From Puniceicoccales bacterium (GTDB lineage Bacteria; Verrucomicrobiota; Verrucomicrobiia; Opitutales; LL51): a stretch of DNA of 39,513 bases. The stretch spans positions 1-39,513 of the forward strand of contig JAIRYA010000058.1 of NCBI GenBank assembly GCA_031268005.1, given 5' to 3'. Below, in pieces: positions 10,957 to 27,095 of this stretch; the stretch's first letter is position 1, and every line of letters begins with the position of its first letter. The translations under genes were made by a program, and so were the position numbers. Below the pieces are notes generated by a model. The model was not told the origin of the DNA, made no database searches, and was given only the letters and a program-made list of their open reading frames with translations.

Positions 10957-11553
10957 ATGGCATCGGTGCATCGATATTTAATTACGGGAACACACGGCTG
11001 CGGGAAGTCTACGCTGTCCCATCGCATTTGTTCGGAGTTCAAAAAAAGTGGCTACAATGCGATCGTTCTCAGTGAGACGGCCCGCGAATCTCCATTCCCG
11101 ATCAACCGGGGTCAAACCGTAAATTCCTCGCTCTATATTGCACTTAAGCAAGCGGTCAAAGAATTGGAAGCCATTGCCCACGGCTATCAATACTTGGTAT
11201 TGGATCGAGGCGTATTGGATTCCTTCGTCTACTCGGAGGCGACGAGAAAGGAAGAAATTTCCGAAATCGAAAGGGGATTGTTGGAGGCCTTTAAAATTTG
11301 GACCCGCGACTACGACGACATTATTTTTGTTAAAAAAGAGGGAAATGATGCCCTGCAAGCCGATGGTATTCGCGATACGGACATGGAGTTCGCCGAAAAA
11401 ACGGAGCAGCTCTTTGAACATTTGTTGATGGAAAATTTTGGAGACAAGGTGCGTGTCATAACCTATGGTGACATGTTAAAAACTAGGATACGGATCGCCG
11501 ATGGGGGCAAAATTTATTTAGATTATGAGCGACACTACGAACTGGTTCATTGA
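10957..11553 (+). CDS. NadR/Ttd14 (AAA_28)-like P-loop nucleoside/nucleotide kinase-fold protein
   Basis: ITGTHGCGKST Walker A, ETARESP, LVLDRGVLDSFVY and DGIRDTD motifs. Confidence 0.75.
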   Translation: MASVHRYLITGTHGCGKSTLSHRICSEFKKSGYNAIVLSETARESPFPINRGQTVNSSLYIALKQAVKELEAIAHGYQYLVLDRGVLDSFVYSEATRKEEISEIERGLLEAFKIWTRDYDDIIFVKKEGNDALQADGIRDTDMEFAEKTEQLFEHLLMENFGDKVRVITYGDMLKTRIRIADGGKIYLDYERHYELVH

Positions 11554-11809
11554 AAACCAAATGCAAATTGTGCTTTGGATATTTATGGGAATTGCCCTTG
11601 TGGGATCCTACTATAATGCGACCATGCGCTGCAAATTGAGCTACATATTATGGCTATTCAGTAACCTCTTTTTTGTATGGCATAATCTTAGCATTGGGGA
11701 AATTCAGCAAGGTTTGATGTATGGGGTTTATTTCATTTTGGCCATTATTGGCATGAAAAATAGCATCCATCAAAAGGGTTGGTTTAGGCGAGCCTCCATG
11801 GAACAATAG
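11525..11809 (+). CDS. Small 3-TM membrane protein, PnuC (nicotinamide riboside transporter)-like half
   Basis: 94 aa with three hydrophobic segments; WLFSN (WxxxN) and YGVYFILAIIG resemble the PnuC C-terminal repeat; overlaps the upstream gene by 29 nt. Confidence 0.6.
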   Translation: MSDTTNWFIENQMQIVLWIFMGIALVGSYYNATMRCKLSYILWLFSNLFFVWHNLSIGEIQQGLMYGVYFILAIIGMKNSIHQKGWFRRASMEQ

Positions 11810-11919
11810 TGGCTATCATTGGAAGCGATGAACGACACTCAGATGAATTTCCATGGAATAGCAGGGGTTGCGAACGGCATTTGAAATATAATGTATTTTA
11901 AAATTTTTATAGGATAAGC

Positions 11920-13428
11920 ATGGCAGAAATGGAGAAAACTCAAAGACCGACGATGGATCAAATTGTGGGTCTGTGTAAGCGGCGGGGAATTATTTTTCAG
12001 TCCTCCGAAATTTACAATGGCGTTGCCGGTTGCTTTGACTATGGGCCTTTTGGAGCTGAAATTAAGAAAAACATTAAAAATGCCTGGTGGGAGGATATGG
12101 TTCATCGCCGCGGGGATATTGTCGGCCTCGACTGTTCCATTATTATGCATTCCGATGTCTGGAAAGCGTCGGGCCACGTGGATGGATTTTCCGATCCTTT
12201 GGTGGATTGTAAAATCTCTAAAATGCGCTACCGCGCCGACCAGCTCTATTTTGGAAAAGTGACCGTTTCCGGCGAAGTCATTGGCTACGTATCCGTTTTG
12301 GAAGATGAAGCAATGCAGTCCATCGCCGAAAATCAGGCCAATGATTTGAAGCGAAAATTGGCCAAACAGGGGACATTGGAGGAAATTGTTCTGAAGGCGT
12401 ATGCGGAAGCTCGGCCGGAGGAGTACGCTTTGATCCCATCGCCGGCAACGGGAAAGCCGGGTTCTTTGACGGCGCCGCGTGCCTTCAATTTAATGTTTCA
12501 GACGCATCTGGGAGCGATTGTGGATGACTCTTCCGTGGCCTATTTGCGCCCGGAGACGGCCCAGGGGATGTTTGTTAATTTCAAAAATATTTTAAATACC
12601 TACCGCGTTAAATTACCCTTTGGCATTGGGCAAATGGGGCGTTCCTTTCGCAATGAGATTACGCCGAGAAATTTCATCTTTCGCTCCCGGGAATTCGAAC
12701 AGATGGAGATGGAATTTTTCATCCAAGATGATGCGAATTGGCAGGAATGGCACCGCTATTGGGTGAACACGCGCTTTGAGTGGCTAAAAAGTATTGGTTT
12801 AAGGGAAGATTTACTGGGCCTCGAAGTCCACCGTCCGGAAAAATTGGCCCACTATTCCCGTGCCTGTACGGATATCACCTTTCACTACCCCTTCGGCGTG
12901 CAGGAATTGGAGGGGATTGCGGCGCGGGGGAACTTCGATTTGACGCAGCACCAAAACGGGAGTGGAAAAAATTTGGAATATTTCGATGAGCAGCAAAATC
13001 GGAGCTATTTGCCCCACGTCATTGAACCGGCAATTGGTGTGGACCGCCTATTTTTAGCGGTACTATGTTCAGCCTATGTCGAGGAGAAAGTCGAAGACGA
13101 AACGCGCATTGTTTTAAAATTACATCCACGCATTGCGCCCCTAAAGGCGGCGGTTTTGCCATTGGTCAAAAATCGTCCCGAGTTGGTTGATTTGGCAAAA
13201 AATTTATACCAAAAATTATCGCGAATCTGCCATGTGCAGTACGATGAAAGTGGGGCAATTGGCCGCCGCTACCGCCGCATGGATGAAATTGGCACGCCCT
13301 ATTGCATTACCGCGGATTTCGATTCCCTGGAAAGCGGAACATTCACCCTGCGCGACCGCGATACGATGGAGCAGAAACGATTGACGGAAAATGAGATTAT
13401 TACATTTCTATGGGAACATTGCCACTAA
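11920..13428 (+). CDS. glyQS: Glycine--tRNA ligase, alpha2 (homodimeric) type
   Basis: [69 protein letters not shown]. Confidence 0.98.
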
Positions 13429-13554
13429 AATTTTTTAAAAGTAAATAATAAAAGCCCCCTAATATTTCAACGGGAACAGTTTTTTATTTTTCATAAAAAA
13501 ATATCCTACCGTAAAAACCTTGCAAATTATTATAAATTTACAAAATATAAAGAC

Positions 13555-15036
13555 ATGTATGACTTTTTTTCCATAAAGTTTACCCCAAACAACAAACTGC
13601 CGAAGATTGGTACATCCGAACAGCAAGATATAAAGAAAGAAAATCAAATTACCCAAAACAATACATCTCAAAAATCTATTAAGCCAACAAGTGGTCCTCC
13701 TCAGACCCCATCTCTTAATAAACGCAGGACTGAAATGCCTAAAAAAACTTCTTGGCTGTCGAGTCTCTTTAAATTTTTCACTTTTTGGAACGAAAAAAGA
13801 AAATCTTCAAATGCCAAAAACTCTATTTTAAAGGAATTGGAGAGTGAAAATTATAAAACAAAAGAACAGCGGCTTAATCTGTTAAAAAATAAATTGGATA
13901 ATAAAATTTTAGATCTTGCAATAATGATAGACCTTCGCAATGAAGGAAAAATCGATGAATTTGAAATGATGTTTCTTATAAATCGAGACCTTTATGAAAA
14001 AAAAGAAATGGATCAACTATCATTTGCAAAGTCATCCATCCATGCCCTTAAGGATATGGCAACCGAAGAAAAGGGATTGATGGATATTTTGTGTGAACAA
14101 TGTGACATTGAAAAGGGAAGCGATACCCATGTTGCATTGTTGGAACATTGTCTCACGGATCCCGATTTAAGTGATGTGCCACTCGTAATTACTGATATTT
14201 CAGGTGAGCATGTCGATCCCCTAAAAGCAGCGAACAATCCCAACACCAATCCCAACCCGGAATTTTGTAAAAAAGTTATGGACGCAAAAAATGTCAATGA
14301 AATTGCAGAGGTTTTTAATACATTTTTTAGTGATGCAAATGGAGATCCTCGACTGGAATCACAAAAAGACGTTTATGCAAATGGAAATCTATTGCGAGCA
14401 GATCTCGAGCGTAGCCTTCTGAAAGTGAATGTAAATGGGAAAGAAATTCTTCTTTCCGGAAATGAGAGCTCATTGAAATCGTCAGGAAAAGAGGACTATC
14501 AATTAATAAAAGAAGGAAAACAAATAAACGGTTTGCCTTGTGAAGATGTTTTTCAGCTAATGCTGGAGCAAATCCAAAAGCAAGGCGAATTAGCAGAGGA
14601 AGATGCCTTAAAAGTTCTAAAACAAATCGTTTTAGCGTATCGCGGTCAAAACGGTGTCGCCGATGGTTATAACTTAATCAGTGTATCTTTATTGGAGCAC
14701 AACAAATTAATGGCAGCAAATTCAGGCCCCAAAATAAGCATGGAATTTGATAAAAATTTTACTCTTACTAGAAAAACGGAAGATGCACCCATGATTAGCA
14801 TTCAAAGTACAATGACCGGGCAATTCTTTTCCACCGAATGTCGGTTTAAATTTCCCGATGATCCTGAAAACAAAGGAATTCGAACGCAACTACCCATCAC
14901 ATCGACGAGAAAAGAATCGATAGATGGAAGAACGATTGAATGGACTTGCCCCTTTCGAGAAAATCCACCGAACAAAGTTATTTTCTACGGCGGCTGTAAA
15001 AAATCTGAACCTTCGGTATCCCAAGGAATTTCTTAA
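13555..15036 (+). CDS. Hypothetical AT-rich protein, candidate secreted effector
   Basis: 493-aa ORF; low-complexity S/T/P/Q/N/K N-terminus, no signal peptide or TM, no recognisable family. Confidence 0.7.
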   Translation: MYDFFSIKFTPNNKLPKIGTSEQQDIKKENQITQNNTSQKSIKPTSGPPQTPSLNKRRTEMPKKTSWLSSLFKFFTFWNEKRKSSNAKNSILKELESENYKTKEQRLNLLKNKLDNKILDLAIMIDLRNEGKIDEFEMMFLINRDLYEKKEMDQLSFAKSSIHALKDMATEEKGLMDILCEQCDIEKGSDTHVALLEHCLTDPDLSDVPLVITDISGEHVDPLKAANNPNTNPNPEFCKKVMDAKNVNEIAEVFNTFFSDANGDPRLESQKDVYANGNLLRADLERSLLKVNVNGKEILLSGNESSLKSSGKEDYQLIKEGKQINGLPCEDVFQLMLEQIQKQGELAEEDALKVLKQIVLAYRGQNGVADGYNLISVSLLEHNKLMAANSGPKISMEFDKNFTLTRKTEDAPMISIQSTMTGQFFSTECRFKFPDDPENKGIRTQLPITSTRKESIDGRTIEWTCPFRENPPNKVIFYGGCKKSEPSVSQGIS

Positions 15037-15188
15037 AAATCAAAAAAAAATGAGGCATCGCCAACAAAAGCTATAAAATAGTTTGTCACTTTTTGTTGTC
15101 TAGCAAATTTTTAAGGCGATTATGCTATTACAACGCAAATGGAAAAATAAAATCAATTGAAAAGAGGAAAAAAGTGCTGCCAGAAGTG

Positions 15189-15300
15189 GAATAATTTCAC
15201 CAACGATGGAAAACTTTATTTAAAATAAAAGCTTTTCGGAAACCATTGAAATAATTTCACTTCCAATGAAAATTTTCCATCTTAAAATAAAAGCTCTTCG
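15189..15300. repeat. Imperfect ~60-62 bp tandem duplication in the convergent intergenic gap
   Basis: ataatttcac at 15191 and 15251; aaaataaaagct at 15222 and 15284. Confidence 0.7.
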
Positions 15301-15416
15301 CTATCAGTAGAAAAAATCCATTTGAAGTAAAATTTTAATTAGCAAAGAAAATTATTACCGATTAATGTTTTTTTTAATTTCCAGGCGATTGGGATCAAGT
15401 TTTTTTGATTCAAATT

Positions 15417-17552
15417 TTATTTCAAACTTTCATCTAATTTCTTTGAAATATTGACCTTAGCGCCCCTAATATAGGCATTAATTTCGTTACTTTTTTTTCC
15501 ATTTTCCTGAATAGCTTCTGTCAGCATAGATCCAAATGTTTTCATATTAAGCTTTCCCTCCTTCATTTTCGTCTTAAAGGCAGTGTTTAAAGCATTTTGA
15601 TCACCTTCTTTTATCTTTTTTTCATTTGAGTCACTACTTTCATTTATAAATTTTAGAAAAATTTCTTGTGTTGTTTTAGAAAATCGTTCTATGCCGTTGA
15701 TAATATTTGCAAAACTAGACATTTCAAAATTTTCGTTAGGGTCGAATTCTTTACTAAAAACACTTGAAATCCTATCTAAATCTTTTTTGTCGTCATTTAA
15801 TAGCCGGATTTGAGACTGCCCCATTTTTTCAAGGGCATCCTTAGTATCTTTCTTAAATTCTTTACAATCATTGGGATAATTTTTAAGAAAAAAGCTAACC
15901 GCATTCTCATTACCACTTTTTATGGCCCCTAAAAATGCTTCTTTTAAAATTTCTTTTTCTTCGAATTTTAACTTTCCGGACTTTTGTAAGCTTTCTAATT
16001 TTTTTGCATCGCCATTTTCCGCTGCCTTGACAAAATTTTTCCGATTAAGTATTTTTTCTTGTTCTTGCACTATTTCATCAAAACTTTTATCCTCATTTGT
16101 CGCAGCTTTCCAAGCATTTTCAATATTTTTACGAAAATCATTTGAAATTTGTGATTTATTTTCGATGTAATTTTCAATAATTATTAAAGTATGATTTTTT
16201 ATTCGCGTTTGTAAATCTTTTCCATAATCTTTTGCATGCGCAAGGCCTTGAGCAGCGCTAGCACCTTCTAGGGGATTATCGTAAAATTTCTCCACGCAGC
16301 CAATAAAACTTACTATCTCTCCTTTAGAAACAACAGAACCAAAATCGCGATTATTAAATAAGAATAGCATTTTCTGGAGTCTTTCATTTTGTTCTTCAAA
16401 TTGTAAACTCTTGAAATCTTTAGTTAGATCTTTACTGTCGTCGTCTATTTTTTTATAATTTTCCGGTAGAAATACGTTTGGCATTTTATCTAGTTTTTCA
16501 TCTACACTTTTATCTAGACTTTGATTTGGCTTTGGTTGGCCAAACTCATAAGGAATATCATTAATACAACCGCGAGTAAGATCATAATTTTCTTTAAATT
16601 CTTTTGCATATTTTTCAGCCACTTCAGTCCCCGAAGGCAAAGACAAAAATATGGCCAACCTACCCTTAGGCACCATTTGCCTTGCAATATTTACGTCCAA
16701 ACCAAATTCTACTGATGCCGCTAGAGCACAAGCCTCATGTGCTATTTCTTTCACCTGCGATTTTATGGATTCCTTAATATTTTCTGGCGTTTTCGGATTT
16801 TTGTACATTGCTTCTATTAGATCCCCAATTTTTTCTCCGTCTTCTTTCGATAAATTGGGTGCGTTCAGTTGCTCAAATAATCCTTCTACTATTTCCATAG
16901 CTATTGGGTTCAAATTTTCCTTTCCTTTTTGAGTTAAATTGTTTGCGTATAATCCCAACAAAGCTTCACCTTTTTCCATTGCATTAGCATCTACATTTGT
17001 TCCCATTTCGCCTTTTATTTTTCCATCCCTAACCACCATTAATAAATCTTCCCGAAAATCTTTCTGCAAATCACCCAATTGTAAATTTTTTTGCAAATTG
17101 TCCAATCTGTTCTTGCTTGGCAAAATTTGCACGTTTGGCTTGCTGTTTTTGGAGTTTTTTTTACTTTTACTCTTTTCGTGACAAGCCTTTGTACTACTTT
17201 CCAAAAGAGCACAAAATTTACCCTTTTGAATCAATGACAGTTTTGAATTTTGTACTTGATTCCCAATGAGATTTTCGAATATTTTAGCATTTCGCTTTTG
17301 GATTCCTTTACTAAAAAGTATTTTTTTTAACGGAGCACTATATACTGTCTTTTCCGTTATACTTGGGCCAGATAATATATTTATGGTAACCTCTTTTGCT
17401 TTAAACAATCCAGATTTTTTCATCGAAACTTCATATTGTATTCCATTCAAATTAAATTTTTGGTTAACTTCTTTTTCTTTACTTTTTTCACAGTCATTGA
17501 TCATCGCATTAAAAGTCCCGAAATTATCCATGTTTATATTAATCCCACTCAT
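15417..17552 (-). CDS. Hypothetical Lys/Glu-rich helical protein with two ankyrin-like motifs, candidate effector
   Basis: 711-aa AT-rich ORF; FVKAAENGDAKKLESL and AFLGAIKSGNENAVSFFLK resemble ankyrin helix-turn-helix units. Confidence 0.7.
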   Translation of the reverse strand: MSGININMDNFGTFNAMINDCEKSKEKEVNQKFNLNGIQYEVSMKKSGLFKAKEVTINILSGPSITEKTVYSAPLKKILFSKGIQKRNAKIFENLIGNQVQNSKLSLIQKGKFCALLESSTKACHEKSKSKKNSKNSKPNVQILPSKNRLDNLQKNLQLGDLQKDFREDLLMVVRDGKIKGEMGTNVDANAMEKGEALLGLYANNLTQKGKENLNPIAMEIVEGLFEQLNAPNLSKEDGEKIGDLIEAMYKNPKTPENIKESIKSQVKEIAHEACALAASVEFGLDVNIARQMVPKGRLAIFLSLPSGTEVAEKYAKEFKENYDLTRGCINDIPYEFGQPKPNQSLDKSVDEKLDKMPNVFLPENYKKIDDDSKDLTKDFKSLQFEEQNERLQKMLFLFNNRDFGSVVSKGEIVSFIGCVEKFYDNPLEGASAAQGLAHAKDYGKDLQTRIKNHTLIIIENYIENKSQISNDFRKNIENAWKAATNEDKSFDEIVQEQEKILNRKNFVKAAENGDAKKLESLQKSGKLKFEEKEILKEAFLGAIKSGNENAVSFFLKNYPNDCKEFKKDTKDALEKMGQSQIRLLNDDKKDLDRISSVFSKEFDPNENFEMSSFANIINGIERFSKTTQEIFLKFINESSDSNEKKIKEGDQNALNTAFKTKMKEGKLNMKTFGSMLTEAIQENGKKSNEINAYIRGAKVNISKKLDESLK

Positions 17553-17691
17553 ATACTTTATCTTTTTCTTTAAAGAATATTATGATTTAATTTATATTTT
17601 GCAATATATTTTATACTATTCTATTGTTTTTTTTAATATTTTACTGCTTGCATTGTATTCAAGGAGAAGATTTTCATTTCTGGAAAGTGAA

Positions 17692-18852
17692 TCATTGGAT
17701 GAGTGCACTTTGAATCCAGTTTAGGACATCATTTTGTGGCTCCGCTGACAATAGTTGCCGCAATTCTTCCCCATCCCTCTGTGCCTGCGCTAAAATTTCC
17801 GGATTATTTAAACAATCCCGCATGGCACTACAAATCAGTTTCGGTTTTGCGGAAAATTGTAAAAACTCACGGGCCGATTCCCGATTTAGAAGAATATTCG
17901 CGATGTGTAGAAATTTCACCCTTATCAATAGCTTTGCCAATCCGTAGGTGATGGTGCTGGCTTTATAAACGATCACACCCGGAATGCCTGCAAGGGCACA
18001 ATTGAGCGCCATGGTCCCCGAACTCATTAGGGATGCGCAAACCGAAAGTGTACGCGTTCCACTTTGGACAAAGGAAATGGATAAATTTTTATATCTCTTG
18101 CAAATATTTTGCAAAATTTCCAAAATATCGTCATCGGGATAGAGCGTAAGCAACTCCCCCACTTCACCCCATTTTTTGAGCCGATCAATGGAATCGAGCA
18201 TGGTGGGAAAAATCTTTTTTACCGCCGCTTTTCGGCTTCCCGGCAACAGAAGAATTGGTCCATTGGAATTATAAGTTATTGGTAATACGTAATCTCCATC
18301 TAAAAACGGATGGCCCAAAAATTGCACATCCAGGTCCGTATCCTTGTAATAGGCTTTCTCGAAGGGAAAAATAGTTCCAAGCGCATCAATGTATTTCGCG
18401 ATGGAAAAACGACGCTTCGCCTTCCATGCCCAGATTTGGGGACTAATGTAGTGGTATAATTTTACATTTCCACCCGCTTTGTGGCTTACCCCTCGTCGGA
18501 ATAATTCCTTAGCAATGCGCAAATTAAGTCCCGGAAAATCCACAAAACAGACCGCTTTAGGGCGATAGCGCTCGACCCAATCGCAGGTTATTTTTAAAAA
18601 TTTTGCAAAAAAACGAATATTGCGCAGGACTTCTCCAATGCCTACAACCGAAAATTCCACCAAATTAAAGAGAAAACTGATGCCCGTTCTTTCGAGATTA
18701 TCGCCTCCAATTGCACAAATATTATAATGGGGATATTCGATTTTCAATTTTTTAACCAATGCTGCGCCATGTTCATCGCCGGAGTATTCTCCAGCAATGA
18801 TCAGCAAATCGGGGTAATCCGCCACCACTTCATTGAATGTGATTTTTTGCAT
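17692..18852 (-). CDS. lpxB: Lipid-A-disaccharide synthase
   Basis: IAGEYSGDEHG, VDFPGLNLR, YISPQIWAWK, IFPFE, GHP, LLPGSR, SSGT. Confidence 0.96.
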   Translation of the reverse strand: MQKITFNEVVADYPDLLIIAGEYSGDEHGAALVKKLKIEYPHYNICAIGGDNLERTGISFLFNLVEFSVVGIGEVLRNIRFFAKFLKITCDWVERYRPKAVCFVDFPGLNLRIAKELFRRGVSHKAGGNVKLYHYISPQIWAWKAKRRFSIAKYIDALGTIFPFEKAYYKDTDLDVQFLGHPFLDGDYVLPITYNSNGPILLLPGSRKAAVKKIFPTMLDSIDRLKKWGEVGELLTLYPDDDILEILQNICKRYKNLSISFVQSGTRTLSVCASLMSSGTMALNCALAGIPGVIVYKASTITYGLAKLLIRVKFLHIANILLNRESAREFLQFSAKPKLICSAMRDCLNNPEILAQAQRDGEELRQLLSAEPQNDVLNWIQSALIQ

Positions 18853-18854
18853 GA

Positions 18855-19952
18855 CTATGTATTAAAACGAAAAACAACAACGTCGCCATCCTTAACTTCA
18901 TAATCCTTCCCCTCGAGGCGATATTTTCCAGCCTCTTTTGCAGCCAATGTCGATCCCGCGGCAACCAAATCCGCATAGCTAACGACCTCCGCCCTAATAA
19001 ACCCGCGCTCAAAATCCCCATGGATGATAGCGGCACATTGGGGCGCTCGCATCCCCAACCTAAAAGTCCAGGCGTGGACTTCCATTTCACCGGCCGTAAA
19101 ATAGGAAGCCAATCCCAGCAGATGGTAAGTGGATCGAATTAAATTGGAGACACCGCTATCTCGAACGCCGAAATCTAATAGATAGGCTTCCGCTTCTTCG
19201 GGAGAAAAATCGATCAAATCCGATTCCAATTGGGCACAGATGACGCAGCATTCTCCGCCATTTCTGGATTGCACATATTTTTTGACAGCCTCCGCAAAGG
19301 CATTGCCCTTCGCAATTTCACCCTCCGATACATTGCACGCATAAATAACGGGTTTCGAGGAAAGTAAATTGAAGGATTTGAGTAAAATTTTTTCCTCCTC
19401 ACTCATTTCCAGCGTATTGGCCGGATGACTTTGATTGAGATGATTTTGTAGGCGCCCTAGAAGTTCGACGACTTTGACCGCTTCTCCCTCATTGGCTCGA
19501 GATTTTTTTATATTTTTATTGATCTGATTTTCGACGGATTGCAAATCCGCTAAAATTAATTCCGTATGAATAATTTCAATGTCGCGAATGGGATCGATAG
19601 CGCCGGAACTGTGGATAATGTCGCTATTTTCAAAGCAACGTACCACGTGAATGATGGCATCGACCTCGCGAATATTCGCCAAAAATTTATTGCCGAGGCC
19701 CTCTCCCCGATTCGCACCGGCCACAAGCCCGGCGATGTCGACCATTTCAATGGCTGCGGGAACTAATTTATCCGTTTTGGCAATGGGCTTTAGAATTGCC
19801 AGGCGTTCATCGGGAACTTCAACGACGCCGACGTTGGGATCGATGGTGCAAAATGGGTAATTTTCAGCCTGTGCCTTACGCGTACGCGTCAGCGCATTGA
19901 AAAGCGTACTTTTCCCCACATTGGGCAATCCTACAATTCCAGCCTGTAACAT
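18855..19952 (-). CDS. ychF: Redox-regulated ATPase YchF
   Basis: [47 protein letters not shown]-terminus. Confidence 0.98.
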
Positions 19953-20019
19953 GACCTAAGGGTAAAAGAAATCCCTAAAATTTCGCAAGAATTTATGGCA
20001 AAAGGGCAATACTATTTTA

Positions 20020-20110
20020 GGGGCAATGAAAGATCCGAAAGACCGCGTCTCCCGAAGTAAGATCCCAGGGATTCACAGCACTTGGAAGAACCTTGAACTG
20101 CATTGCTTTT
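20020..20110. ncRNA. Candidate structured non-coding RNA (long interrupted hairpin)
   Basis: Outer pairing gcaatg/cattgc, inner stem tctcccgaagt/acttggaaga, apical gatcc/ggatt; a GC-richer island in an AT-rich gap. Confidence 0.3.
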
Positions 20111-20151
20111 CGCCAAAGATGAAATTATAATTTAATTTTTACAAAATTTTA

Positions 20152-20179
20152 TTGCAAAAAAATAATACATTCCTATAAT
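20152..20179 (+). promoter_or_regulatory. Sigma70-type promoter for the SopB-like gene, probably giving a near-leaderless mRNA
   Basis: TTGCAA (20152-20157)-N16-TATAAT (20174-20179), only 8 nt before ATG 20188; no SD sequence. Confidence 0.55.
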
Positions 20180-20187
20180 TGTAAATT

Positions 20188-22197
20188 ATGAATAATCGTA
20201 TTGATTTAGGAAATGGAAGTCCCCCAGGCTTTAGTGGAGCTAATGGTAGTGAAAAGAAAAACCAAATTAATGCTAATTTACATTTCAAAAACGGTAAAAA
20301 TTTTACGATTCATATAAAAATGAAAGATGGGGAAAAGCCTATCGGGATGCAAAGTAGATTTAGTGATTTTTTTACTTTAAAAACCAAAACCATGAAAAAA
20401 TTGGCTGAAAGAAAAACTTTTTCGCCCGCAAAAGCTCGAGCGGCAATGAAAGGTATTGCTAAATACTTTACAAAAAATTGCCAAAGAAAAAACGCAGAAA
20501 AAACAAATGCCATTGAAGAAACATTTAGAAAAAGTGTAACTGAAAAAAAAGTCGACGATGAAATTATTAAAAGTCTTCAGGAGAGCTATGGGCCGGAAAA
20601 ATTAGAAGAAATGCAAAAAGAGAAAGACAAGAAAATTTTTTCTAAAGAGAATCTAGAAGATTGGAGCAATCTTATGGTCGAAATTTTAAAAAAAGCAGGC
20701 AATGATCCATATGTTTCCATATCATCCGAAAACCAGAATTCCGTTGCAAATTTTAAGATAAAAGCCGAAAATTCTCACACAACTCTCCCAGACCCACCTT
20801 CAAAAGATGAAATTTTAAAAAGTGCTAAAACATTAAAAAAAGAACTTATTAAAGAACTGGACAAACTTTCACCGGGAAATGGTGAGAAACTTTTCAAAAA
20901 GTACTATCCTAAGGCCTTAAGCGATAATGATGCTTGGAAACCTTTTCAAAAAAACATAAAACTCTTTACAAAAAACGGAGATCAAAAAAATTTCACCGCT
21001 TTCCTTGAGCCGGCAAATGGGATGGGATGCTTTAGCTATTTGGCAAAACCAGAAGAACCAAAAGATCCAGAAAAACCAAAGGGTGTTTCCTCCATGGAAC
21101 GCTTAGTTCCACATGCCATGAATTTATGGGAAACAAAAATTTCGACTAATTCAGATGAGAATCAGTCGTCTTCTCAAGATAAGCTGCTTTTCCGAGGCAT
21201 TCGCCATGGGAGCACAGGGGGAAATGAAGACGCGAGCAAAGAAATTATAACGGCTTGTTTGGTGCAAAAATTAGGGGGAATTAATGTTCTCGAAGACTCT
21301 ATGAAAGAGAATAATACGCAAGAAGAAAATGGATCAAAGGAGAAACCATTTTCTTTGACAATGAGCAACATTCAACTTATGACGGCAGGGATTTCCGGCG
21401 ATGGCGATATGCCGAAAAATCAAATGGAAACATTTCAAAAACTGGCAAAGGAATCACCCCTGGAATTGCAAATTCCCACACCGGGAGGAAAGCCGGTTTA
21501 TGTGAAATTTGAGTATATAGGATTTAATTATGGCGTGAATTTACAACAATTCCACCTGCCGCCAACCGTCGTAAAAAATTTAACAAAAGAAAATGCTGCT
21601 GCGATGGAAATTTTTCTAGGTAATAGTAAATCTATTGCTGAAAAGAATTTTCATCCTAAAACATTTGAAGATATCGACTTAGAACAAGAAAAAGAACTCT
21701 TTGGCGATTCTGAAGTTGGAAAATTTTTGAATTCAGGTGCTTCCGATGCTGAGAAGAAAATCGTTGTTCAACTCGCCCATCAAATTGCGGACATATTGGA
21801 ATCGGGGAAATATAAGACCGACGAATCCGAACCCTATGCCCTACCAGCACGACTAGTGCTATTGAGCGAAAAATTAGGATTGTCAACAACATACAATTGC
21901 AAAAGCGGAAAGGATAGAACGGGAATAGCAAGTATTGAAATCAATCACTTAGCGACGGAAATTGAAATGAATGGGGGGATTGTCCCCGAACCTTACCATC
22001 CCTTGGATGATCGCGAAAAGTTCAATTTAAACGAAATTAAAAATGAGAGTGGATCCGGTGAGATTACGAAAATAAACACGGGATGGGAAGGATTTAAAAT
22101 TAAAGATGCCATGTTATCCGTAAAAAATATATTCAAAGGGGTTAAAAATAGAATGGGTGATGTTCGAGGTGCATCAAGCTTAGTTAAAGGTGGGTGA
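20188..22197 (+). CDS. SopB/IpgD-family inositol/phosphoinositide phosphatase effector
   Basis: Catalytic CX5R motif NCKSGKDRTG plus collinear family motifs KGVSS..HAMNLW, LFRGIRHG, FNYGVN, LAHQIADI..EPYALPARL and EITKINTG.GFK. Confidence 0.9.
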   Translation: MNNRIDLGNGSPPGFSGANGSEKKNQINANLHFKNGKNFTIHIKMKDGEKPIGMQSRFSDFFTLKTKTMKKLAERKTFSPAKARAAMKGIAKYFTKNCQRKNAEKTNAIEETFRKSVTEKKVDDEIIKSLQESYGPEKLEEMQKEKDKKIFSKENLEDWSNLMVEILKKAGNDPYVSISSENQNSVANFKIKAENSHTTLPDPPSKDEILKSAKTLKKELIKELDKLSPGNGEKLFKKYYPKALSDNDAWKPFQKNIKLFTKNGDQKNFTAFLEPANGMGCFSYLAKPEEPKDPEKPKGVSSMERLVPHAMNLWETKISTNSDENQSSSQDKLLFRGIRHGSTGGNEDASKEIITACLVQKLGGINVLEDSMKENNTQEENGSKEKPFSLTMSNIQLMTAGISGDGDMPKNQMETFQKLAKESPLELQIPTPGGKPVYVKFEYIGFNYGVNLQQFHLPPTVVKNLTKENAAAMEIFLGNSKSIAEKNFHPKTFEDIDLEQEKELFGDSEVGKFLNSGASDAEKKIVVQLAHQIADILESGKYKTDESEPYALPARLVLLSEKLGLSTTYNCKSGKDRTGIASIEINHLATEIEMNGGIVPEPYHPLDDREKFNLNEIKNESGSGEITKINTGWEGFKIKDAMLSVKNIFKGVKNRMGDVRGASSLVKGG

Positions 22198-22234: not shown

Positions 22235-22534
22235 TCACTCCCCAACGGTGACAATCGCCGTCCAATCATCGCCCACAAAAACCCCTAATTTTCCATGTTC
22301 GATCGATTTTTTATCCAGTAATTCCGTAATCGATCGCATTTCTCCGCCTTGAATTTCCTCTGGATTTTCGCCCGCCACTTTGCGAATGAACATATTTTCA
22401 GGCAAATCAAAGGACTCACCATTTCGCACAAAGGAACGCTTATAGCCCAGTAGCATCAATGCGCGATGTATTTTCCCATTGTTTTCCTCGGAGTCGTGAA
22501 AAATTGTCACTAAAAAATCTTTTAAACCTTCCAT
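22235..22534 (-). CDS. Small GhoS/DUF2622-like ferredoxin-fold protein (99 aa; alternative start 22558)
   Basis: Pattern FLVTI..H..M..GY.RS..G.SFDLPEN.F recalls GhoS/DUF2622; the longer ORF start at 22681 runs through a repeat remnant. Confidence 0.5.
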   Translation of the reverse strand: MEGLKDFLVTIFHDSEENNGKIHRALMLLGYKRSFVRNGESFDLPENMFIRKVAGENPEEIQGGEMRSITELLDKKSIEHGKLGVFVGDDWTAIVTVGE

Positions 22535-22625
22535 AATCCCTGCGACGAAATATTCCATATGAAAATGTGTTCTTTTTGCAAAACAAAAACAAAACAAAAA
22601 ATGGAGACTGCTTCCCAGGGGGTAT

Positions 22626-22670
22626 TTGCCCTTAGAATCCACGCCAGGAGATCTGTTTCCTGGGACCCCT
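22626..22670. repeat. Truncated copy (left module only) of the multi-hairpin repeat, copy C
   Basis: ttgcccttagaatccacgccaggagatctgtttcctgggacc aligns with ttgcccttaggatccccgccaggagacaagtctcctggacc of copy A (5568-5608). Confidence 0.75.
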
Positions 22671-22690
22671 CCCGTGCCCATGAAAAGCTT

Positions 22691-23794
22691 TCAGTGGCGA
22701 CACAATTTCCAGCACATGCCTATCCCTAGAGTTTGTAGCAAAATATTGGGAAGCCAAACGATTAATTCGGGATGTAGCCGGGGTCTTTCCGCCAGGGATG
22801 ACAAAATCATCATCAAAAAATAATAAATTATGCAAATTAATAGGGCAATGGCCACATTGAGCGACGTTCCCCTTCGATTCCATTTAACGGCCAGGGGAAG
22901 CGCCAGGAGGACGAGCACTAAAATTGAAAACGCCATCGCACACTGGGTCTGGATATTGACGGTCAGCTCCATTTGTTTTCGAAAATCACCCTCTCGAATA
23001 CTCTGCCTGCGCAATACTAGCATTTCCGAAAGTGTCATGTGACGAATCTTTTTACGCGTTTGCATGCTTTTAAAAATATTTTCCATGGATAGATCGTAGG
23101 ATAATTCCCTAAAGGAAACCAAAGGTGCATCCTTTCCCTCGGAAAGTGCTTTTTCAGCCGTCCCCTCCGATAGGGTTAGTGTAAGCGCTTGCTTTTGCTC
23201 ATCGTAGCTAAGCGTACCGCATTTGGCATGGATATAGGAGTCAACTTTTTCTTGATCGTCGATTTTCCAGAGGTGAAAATCATTCAATTGCCCATGATCC
23301 AAACTTTGCACAAAAATAATATACCCTGGAAAATCGCGAATAAATTGCTGTGGCGTCACAAATCGCAGGGGTTCCTCGCGAATAATATTTTGAATCTTAG
23401 TTTTAACCCTAGAAATCGCCAGGGGTGCGTAGTGGAAATTGACCATCAGAGATAGCAAAGTCCCACAGCCGGCTAAGAATAAGATGGAAGAAAATATTTT
23501 CAATGGACCTATTCCGGAACTTTTCAGCGCAATAAACTCACGATTGGCGGACATCTCCCCCAGCGTCAATAGCGTCGCCGTAACGAAGCCAAAGGGAAGG
23601 GCATAGGAAACCATCGAAGGCAGTAGGGTCACCATTAAAAAAATACAATTTTCCAGGGAAAGTTTTCCTCCGGAAAGTAAATCCATCATACTCTTCATCA
23701 TATTTCCAAGGGCAAGTACTCCGGCAAAAAATATAATTGTCAGAATCAAATGGAATAAAAATTGTCTCAATATGTACTGATGAAGAAGTCGCAC
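22691..23794 (-). CDS. lptF: LPS export ABC transporter permease, LptF/LptG family
   Basis: 3TM-periplasmic-3TM layout; LHQYILRQ, EMSANREFIALKSSGI, WLPN. Confidence 0.88.
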   Translation of the reverse strand: MRLLHQYILRQFLFHLILTIIFFAGVLALGNMMKSMMDLLSGGKLSLENCIFLMVTLLPSMVSYALPFGFVTATLLTLGEMSANREFIALKSSGIGPLKIFSSILFLAGCGTLLSLMVNFHYAPLAISRVKTKIQNIIREEPLRFVTPQQFIRDFPGYIIFVQSLDHGQLNDFHLWKIDDQEKVDSYIHAKCGTLSYDEQKQALTLTLSEGTAEKALSEGKDAPLVSFRELSYDLSMENIFKSMQTRKKIRHMTLSEMLVLRRQSIREGDFRKQMELTVNIQTQCAMAFSILVLVLLALPLAVKWNRRGTSLNVAIALLICIIYYFLMMILSSLAERPRLHPELIVWLPNILLQTLGIGMCWKLCRH

Positions 23795-27011: not shown

Positions 27012-27095
27012 GCTCGGGTGGTGGAATGGTAGACACGCCAGACTTAGGATCTGGTGCCGCAGGGCATGAGGGTTCGAGTCCCTCTTCGAGCACCA
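27012..27095 (+). tRNA. tRNA-Leu(TAG)
   Basis: Cloverleaf: GCTCGGG/TTCGAGC acceptor, CCAGA-CTTAGGA-TCTGG anticodon arm, long variable arm, GGTTCGAGTCC, encoded CCA. Confidence 0.97.

Follow-up and report, generated by a model that had tools for sequence, protein, structure and literature searches.

Three candidate effector genes and a scattered type III secretion system from a reduced-genome Puniceicoccales bacterium

Three large genes with polar N-termini lie among housekeeping genes on a 39,513-nucleotide stretch of DNA from a Puniceicoccales bacterium (the window, which is contig C43 of the source assembly, genome G000), and they raise the question of whether their products serve the bacterium itself or act on a eukaryotic host. 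We refer to these candidate effectors as genes A, B and C (Table 1). A first-pass annotation, made from the sequence alone, had taken them for parts of an uncharacterised secretion-effector system directed at a eukaryotic host, long integrated into the core chromosome and sharing an upstream TTGCAA hexamer. Based on our results, we consider it likely, with a probability of about 0.72, that G000 is a reduced-genome member of the Opitutia with a scattered type III secretion system, and that A, B and C are effectors injected into a eukaryotic, probably protist, host. The host-manipulation reading stands, whereas the regulon motif does not. The assembly comprises 919,556 bases in 72 contigs with about 750 called genes (completeness 89%), the 16 further genomes of its family span 0.6-1.1 Mb, and its named relatives are metagenome-assembled genomes (MAGs) under the label Puniceicoccales.

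A search of the genome for secretion machinery revealed a non-flagellar type III secretion system encoded over at least six contigs. SctV scores 882 bits (cut-off 692) while the FlhA model remains under its own cut-off; SctR and SctC exceed the injectisome cut-offs, and both SctV and SctR fall under the flagellar ones. The ATPase SctN, the needle protein SctF and TyeA are likewise over their cut-offs, SctJ and SctU are present, SctI, SctQ and SctY lie slightly under, and there are five CesT-type chaperone matches. These genes (SctC, D, F, I, J, N, Q, R, U, V, Y, TyeA and CesT) form small clusters on contigs C37, C41, C53, C56, C62 and C66. Flagellin was not found in the 89% complete assembly. 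The machine is of a known kind, an injectisome, rather than the uncharacterised system first proposed. The gap in its gene set is the translocon: G000 has no SseC-type match, sub-threshold matches occur in 7 of 16 relatives, and a candidate gene is interrupted by a contig end. SctV is over the cut-off in 14 of the 17 family genomes. Outside the family, among genomes G017-G040 of the order Opitutales, SctV occurs in all six genomes of up to 1.9 Mb vs 1 of 18 larger ones, and injectisomes may mark several small-genome symbiont families.

Gene C had been read as a SopB/IpgD homologue, and database searches bear this out. Its residues 246-660 match Pfam IpgD (PF05925; E 1.2e-30, 107 bits, cut-off 22), and it matches Salmonella SopB (PDB 8jzl) with an E value of 1.6e-20 in an alignment that includes CKSGKDRTG. 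Against the NCBIfam SopB equivalog it scores 144.7 bits, below the cut-off of 615; judged by sequence, C is a relative of SopB and not an orthologue-level member. A Cx5R motif of the CKSGKDR type is present in 11 of the 11 C-terminal relatives examined, C counted. SopB and IpgD dephosphorylate host phosphoinositides, and by analogy C is very probably a phosphoinositide phosphatase of this type. Its injection by the type III system is also highly likely. Relatives of C were found in 3 of 24 out-of-family genomes, all three of which carry SctV, and in one of them (G017) 2.3 kb separate the gene from sctV, with the type III cluster on one side of it and the type II cluster on the other. G000 also contains a second intact SopB/IpgD homologue (G000:C21:4974-7115, L013), with 48% identity to C and near-average GC (guanine plus cytosine) content. 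A tree of SopB-like proteins gave no resolved branching.

Genes A and C are long resident, since their chromosomal positions are shared with 8 and 6, respectively, of 13 congeners. Gene A was not found in the other five congeners; it follows glyS in the window and in most A-bearing relatives. The relatives of C each adjoin ychF (that of G012 is split), and nothing occupies the site in the seven other congeners. In a four-gene tree, A, C and proteins with Myb repeats occur only within a subclade of 12 genomes (support 91), and the sister pair G001/G004 is without them. The synonymous GC of A and C is below that of housekeeping genes in 10 of 10 genomes, yet tracks it (r = 0.78, n = 10; kin not independent). 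This confinement and tracking fit long residence with losses, in agreement with the earlier suggestion of long chromosomal integration. Homologues are confined to the reduced-genome clade and to type III-bearing relatives. As the first-pass annotation had also noted, no integrase or insertion sequence (IS) flanks the genes: none of the 31 window proteins scanned matched an integrase or transposase family (Pfam), the five spacers around A, B and C have no long copy elsewhere in G000 (best matches 28-55 nucleotides, nt), and the window's tRNAs, at 27012, 30481 and 38069, are distant. We therefore reject a recent island or IS-flanked origin, in view of the spacers without long copies and the synteny of A and C.

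All three open reading frames (ORFs; 493, 711 and 669 amino acids, aa) carry the polar N-termini described for them, and their AT- and lysine-rich composition holds on a genome-wide scale. Among the 545 G000 genes of at least 200 aa with the 5' end present, only 24, 4 and 23 have a lower GC content than A, B and C (0.366, 0.321 and 0.366), and 44, 6 and 9 have more lysine. Peak N-terminal hydropathy is 0.46, 0.22 and -0.19, that is, there is no Sec-like stretch, as had been claimed. It should be noted that Sec-like signals were judged by N-terminal hydropathy and by eye, and that start codons were assigned by a simple rule, so that some are wrong. Comparison of B with the other polar candidates revealed no significant N-terminal module in common.

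The family of gene A, for which we found 38 representatives among 1.84 billion proteins searched, shows both types of N-terminus. Removal of six duplicates or fragments left 32 members in the tree. Of these, 13 begin with a Sec-like N-terminus (peak hydropathy 1.79-3.02) and 12 with a polar one (-0.59 to 0.89), the three most distant members being among the latter; in the remaining 7 the N-terminus is not usable. Because 13 of the 25 classifiable members bear a Sec-like signal, the domain appears to work outside the cytoplasm. At least three changes of signal type are required on this tree. Eleven Sec-type members form one clade (support 100/99), and the signal of P0027 resembles theirs, yet its core is sister to that of the polar P0017 (97/98); a single Sec clade is narrowly rejected (approximately unbiased test, p = 0.037, simple model). 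G010 carries a tandem pair of one polar and one Sec-type member, and G008, too, has tandem copies. We infer that A duplicates in relatives likely exchanged an injection-type N-terminus for a Sec signal, the likely cause being 5'-end exchange between neighbouring copies. Two further paralogue families mix polar and Sec-like N-termini (C63:19572 vs C45:21226; C36:37266 and C36:38688 vs C70:7919 and C26:2), where decayed signals or miscalled starts are possible. Injection of A itself by the type III system is probable, if less so than that of C.

What A might do in a host is suggested by its structure model (predicted local distance difference test score, pLDDT, 93.5). EspG is the first-ranked Foldseek match, a weak one, and EspG and VirA chains occupy ranks 1-4 of 999 re-aligned chains, again with weak fold likeness. 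Both alignment and model place a hydrophobic-x-x-D-x-x-R motif at a helix end, and conservation is high (D283 in 34 of 34, R286 in 32 of 34 and Q365 in 33 of 35 aligned members), with an aromatic residue at Q-3 vs the aromatic-x-Q motif of VirA/EspG. On the strength of this model we propose, tentatively, that A would most plausibly inactivate a host Rab-type GTPase by an Arg/Gln dual finger, as a GTPase-activating protein (GAP). Searches by sequence gave nothing comparable: A has no PDB sequence match and no usable match in the ESM Atlas, none of 22 A-family members matches Pfam EspG, the A profile found nothing against the VirA/EspG profiles (hhalign probability 0.1), and the 12 proteins retrieved in a search seeded with EspG/VirA all belong to Pfam EspG, with no A-family member among them. 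A serious alternative, somewhat short of even odds, is that A is injected but is no GAP, its core being another enzyme or a binding fold common to uncharacterised proteins of protist giant viruses. The giant-virus matches are, however, equally weak and without known function, while two of the three PDB searches gave, as their best matches of solved structure, members of the sole effector family that uses DxxR plus Gln.

Gene B is mostly helical, and its predicted ankyrin-like repeats incline us, by a modest degree, to the view that it binds a host protein through them. Pfam ankyrin has no match to B, and no homologue was found among 7999 candidates scored. In both G003 and G011, B-like genes adjoin the needle block that contains tyeA-sycN. 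The block AAA_28-orf-glyS (10957-13428) stands head to tail after lpxB in six relatives and is inverted in the window, with B at the junction; in G002, a 723-aa ankyrin gene follows lpxB in B's stead. In B's upstream region (17553-17691), a 33-nt AT-rich stretch is 85% identical to G000:C29:986-1018, which lies upstream of a gene for an ankyrin protein whose N-terminus is polar, equally far from the ATG, although chance is possible.

A more sceptical account would have C alone injected, A and B being fast-evolving, lineage-specific proteins in or on the bacterium, with low GC from relaxed selection. Several observations weigh for it and against injection of all three: neither A nor B has a Pfam or NCBIfam match, A was not found in the five congeners mentioned above, and low GC or a polar N-terminus counts for little as a marker, since the 26 matches of the polar filter include housekeeping-looking genes. 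We nevertheless consider this account improbable, given the Sec-like signals in half of the classifiable A family, the many invariant polar residues kept in the A core, and, for B, the predicted repeats and the B-like genes beside type III genes.

The TTGCAA hexamers lie where they had been reported, 29-46 nt upstream (hexamer-to-ATG gaps of 29, 46 and 30 nt for A, B and C), but their meaning is different from that proposed. TTGCAA is a generic -35 element of housekeeping sigma-70 promoters, with a density of 0.70 per kb across G000. Among 398 lead genes (G000 genes whose upstream spacer measures 80 nt or more), 40 have TTGACA or TTGCAA 33-40 nt 5' of the start, vs 2-10 in each of eight other bins, and housekeeping genes also carry a -35-type box at this position. 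Throughout G000, leaderless-type spacing is common, with -35 boxes peaking at 33-40 nt and -10-like boxes at 12-15 nt before starts; Shine-Dalgarno-like words occur in 44 of the 398 lead genes. From its promoter-to-ATG spacing, the mRNA of C is likely leaderless. That the three genes form a co-regulated effector regulon with a dedicated TTGCAA box, or a recently acquired island, is scarcely credible: the hexamer stands upstream of all three and is found at 6 of the 36 lead genes of low GC, compared with 17 of the 362 others (p = 0.012), but the enrichment disappears without the three discovery genes (3 of 33 vs 17 of 362, p = 0.23), only 1 of 22 homologue upstream regions has it, the -35 peak is genome-wide, and A and C are syntenic in relatives.

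Table 1. Features of the window (positions in the 39,513-nt stretch)
Feature	Position	Strand	Description	Basis
glyS	11920..13428	+	glycine-tRNA ligase, single-chain type	NCBIfam NF003211 over cut-off; synteny
TTGCAA (A)	13520..13525	+	likely sigma-70 -35 box of A, first base 35 nt 5' of ATG	
Gene A	13555..15036	+	493 aa; polar N-terminus and conserved core of about 340 aa; undescribed family, weak VirA/EspG-like fold	
A D283-x-x-R286	14401..14412	+	candidate arginine-finger motif, helix end in model	
A Y362-R-G-Q365	14638..14649	+	candidate glutamine finger, loop between helices in model	
Gene B	15417..17552	-	711 aa; polar N-terminus, mostly helical, at local inversion junction	
B residues ~501-580	15813..16052	-	ankyrin-like repeats (predicted)	
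TTGCAA (B)	17599..17604	-	likely -35 box of B, 52 nt 5' of ATG	
ychF-lpxB	17692..19952	-	housekeeping pair	Pfam
Promoter of C	20152..20179	+	TTGCAA-N16-TATAAT, sigma-70-type, ending 8 nt 5' of ATG	
Gene C	20188..22197	+	669 aa; SopB/IpgD-family inositol phosphate phosphatase; antisense inside lptF-ychF-lpxB run	
C residues 571-577	21898..21918	+	CKSGKDR, catalytic Cx5R motif	
148-aa ORF	22235..22681	-	conserved, between C and lptF; no assigned function	
lptF/lptG	22691..23794	-	lptF/lptG-family permease	Pfam

The placement of the three genes between the glycine-tRNA ligase gene, lpxB-ychF and lptF was described correctly in general, except that the 148-aa ORF separates C from lptF. Same-strand gaps measure 126 nt from glyS to A and 139 nt from lpxB to B. 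Elsewhere in G000, an ORF of at least 2184 aa (C66:2-6553, L008), without a Pfam or NCBIfam match, lies two genes 3' of sctV; GspD- and GspE-like genes of type II secretion type are found at G000:C24:2334-9938 (L011) and a pilus-type secretin at G000:C8:2621-4879.

Further proteins may be directed at a host. Among 62 proteins selected as low-GC, signal-bearing or needle-cluster, ankyrin domains were found in 10, Myb domains in 4, kinase domains in 3 and a patatin domain in 1. Of the 14 genomes in the genus, 11 contain Myb repeats, vs 0 of 27 others. In G000, multi-repeat Myb proteins are encoded on C1, C18, C34 and C55 (L185, L204), with 35 repeat matches and mostly signal-like N-termini; those on C18 are not stray eukaryotic contigs, because bacterial housekeeping genes lie beside them. 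It is possible that the Myb proteins are mimics of host transcription factors. We speculate, as an unlikely extension, that the clade lives in protists as a symbiont aimed at the nucleus and sends out its effectors by two routes. The injectisome would deliver effectors of membrane traffic, namely the SopB-like phosphatases and A, which would then be a new family of dual-finger Rab GAPs, unrecognisable by sequence and with giant-virus look-alikes; Sec/type II would export Myb mimics, kinases and ankyrins; and domains would switch route by 5'-end swaps between tandem copies.

Under the injection reading, each of A, B and C would be transcribed from its own housekeeping sigma-70 promoter, and its product would reach the needle by means of a polar N-terminus and a CesT-type chaperone. 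Once delivered, C would act in the manner of SopB and IpgD and dephosphorylate host phosphoinositides, here those of the membrane that surrounds the bacterium, A might switch off a Rab-type GTPase, and B might bind its host protein, while Sec-signal duplicates of A would reroute the same domain via Sec and the type II system. Small-genome Opitutia symbionts are so far known mostly via 16S sequences and microscopy (G000 itself has no 16S gene), and these genes supply a concrete list of the parts with which they would get into protist cells and manipulate them. Both the machine and C belong to known kinds, in a lineage for which we found no paper on a secretion system or effectors (subscription journals lay outside the search), and C extends SopB-type phosphatase effectors to the Verrucomicrobia. 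The new part is A, with its two export-signal types and possible GAP chemistry. Since one chromosomal site can hold A-family members with different export signals, the change of secretion route is directly testable; if A were a Rab GAP, the chemistry of VirA/EspG would extend far beyond enteric pathogens.

How these parts compare with known systems varies from one to the next. In Chlamydiae, type III secretion genes are dispersed over the chromosome, and the non-flagellar sct genes of G000 are similarly scattered in small clusters; however, the closest named SctV is that of another Puniceicoccales MAG (74%, L026), chlamydial SctV reaching 48-50%. Gene C shares with SopB and IpgD the phosphatase region with an intact Cx5R motif. 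Unlike SopB, its N-terminal ~210 residues do not align and no cognate chaperone gene adjoins it, and unlike both it resides in the core chromosome of a Verrucomicrobia symbiont, with a second genomic copy. Compared with the VirA/EspG TBC-like Rab GAPs, as described in PMC3674391, A has a weak alpha/beta fold likeness over 150-165 residues, a DxxR located where a helix ends and with a beta-hairpin after it, and a conserved Gln 61-94 residues after DxxR (92 in VirA). Its DxxR and Q365 resemble D185-x-x-R188 and Q280 of VirA, but A has no sequence or profile homology to that family. A parallel in genome size is the verrucomicrobial intranuclear protist symbiont Candidatus Nucleococcus, for which PMC8204192 cites an unpublished genome of ~1 Mb and ~700 coding sequences, vs 0.92 Mb and ~750 called genes in G000. 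The clostridial endosymbionts of termite-gut protists offer a further parallel, having, according to PMC10579323, genomes of ~1 Mb and signal-bearing Myb-like proteins and Ser/Thr kinases. Unlike in those endosymbionts, no Rab-like genes were found in the 17 genomes of the G000 family; G000 also belongs to another phylum, and its signal-bearing proteins coexist with injectisome and type II secretion genes.

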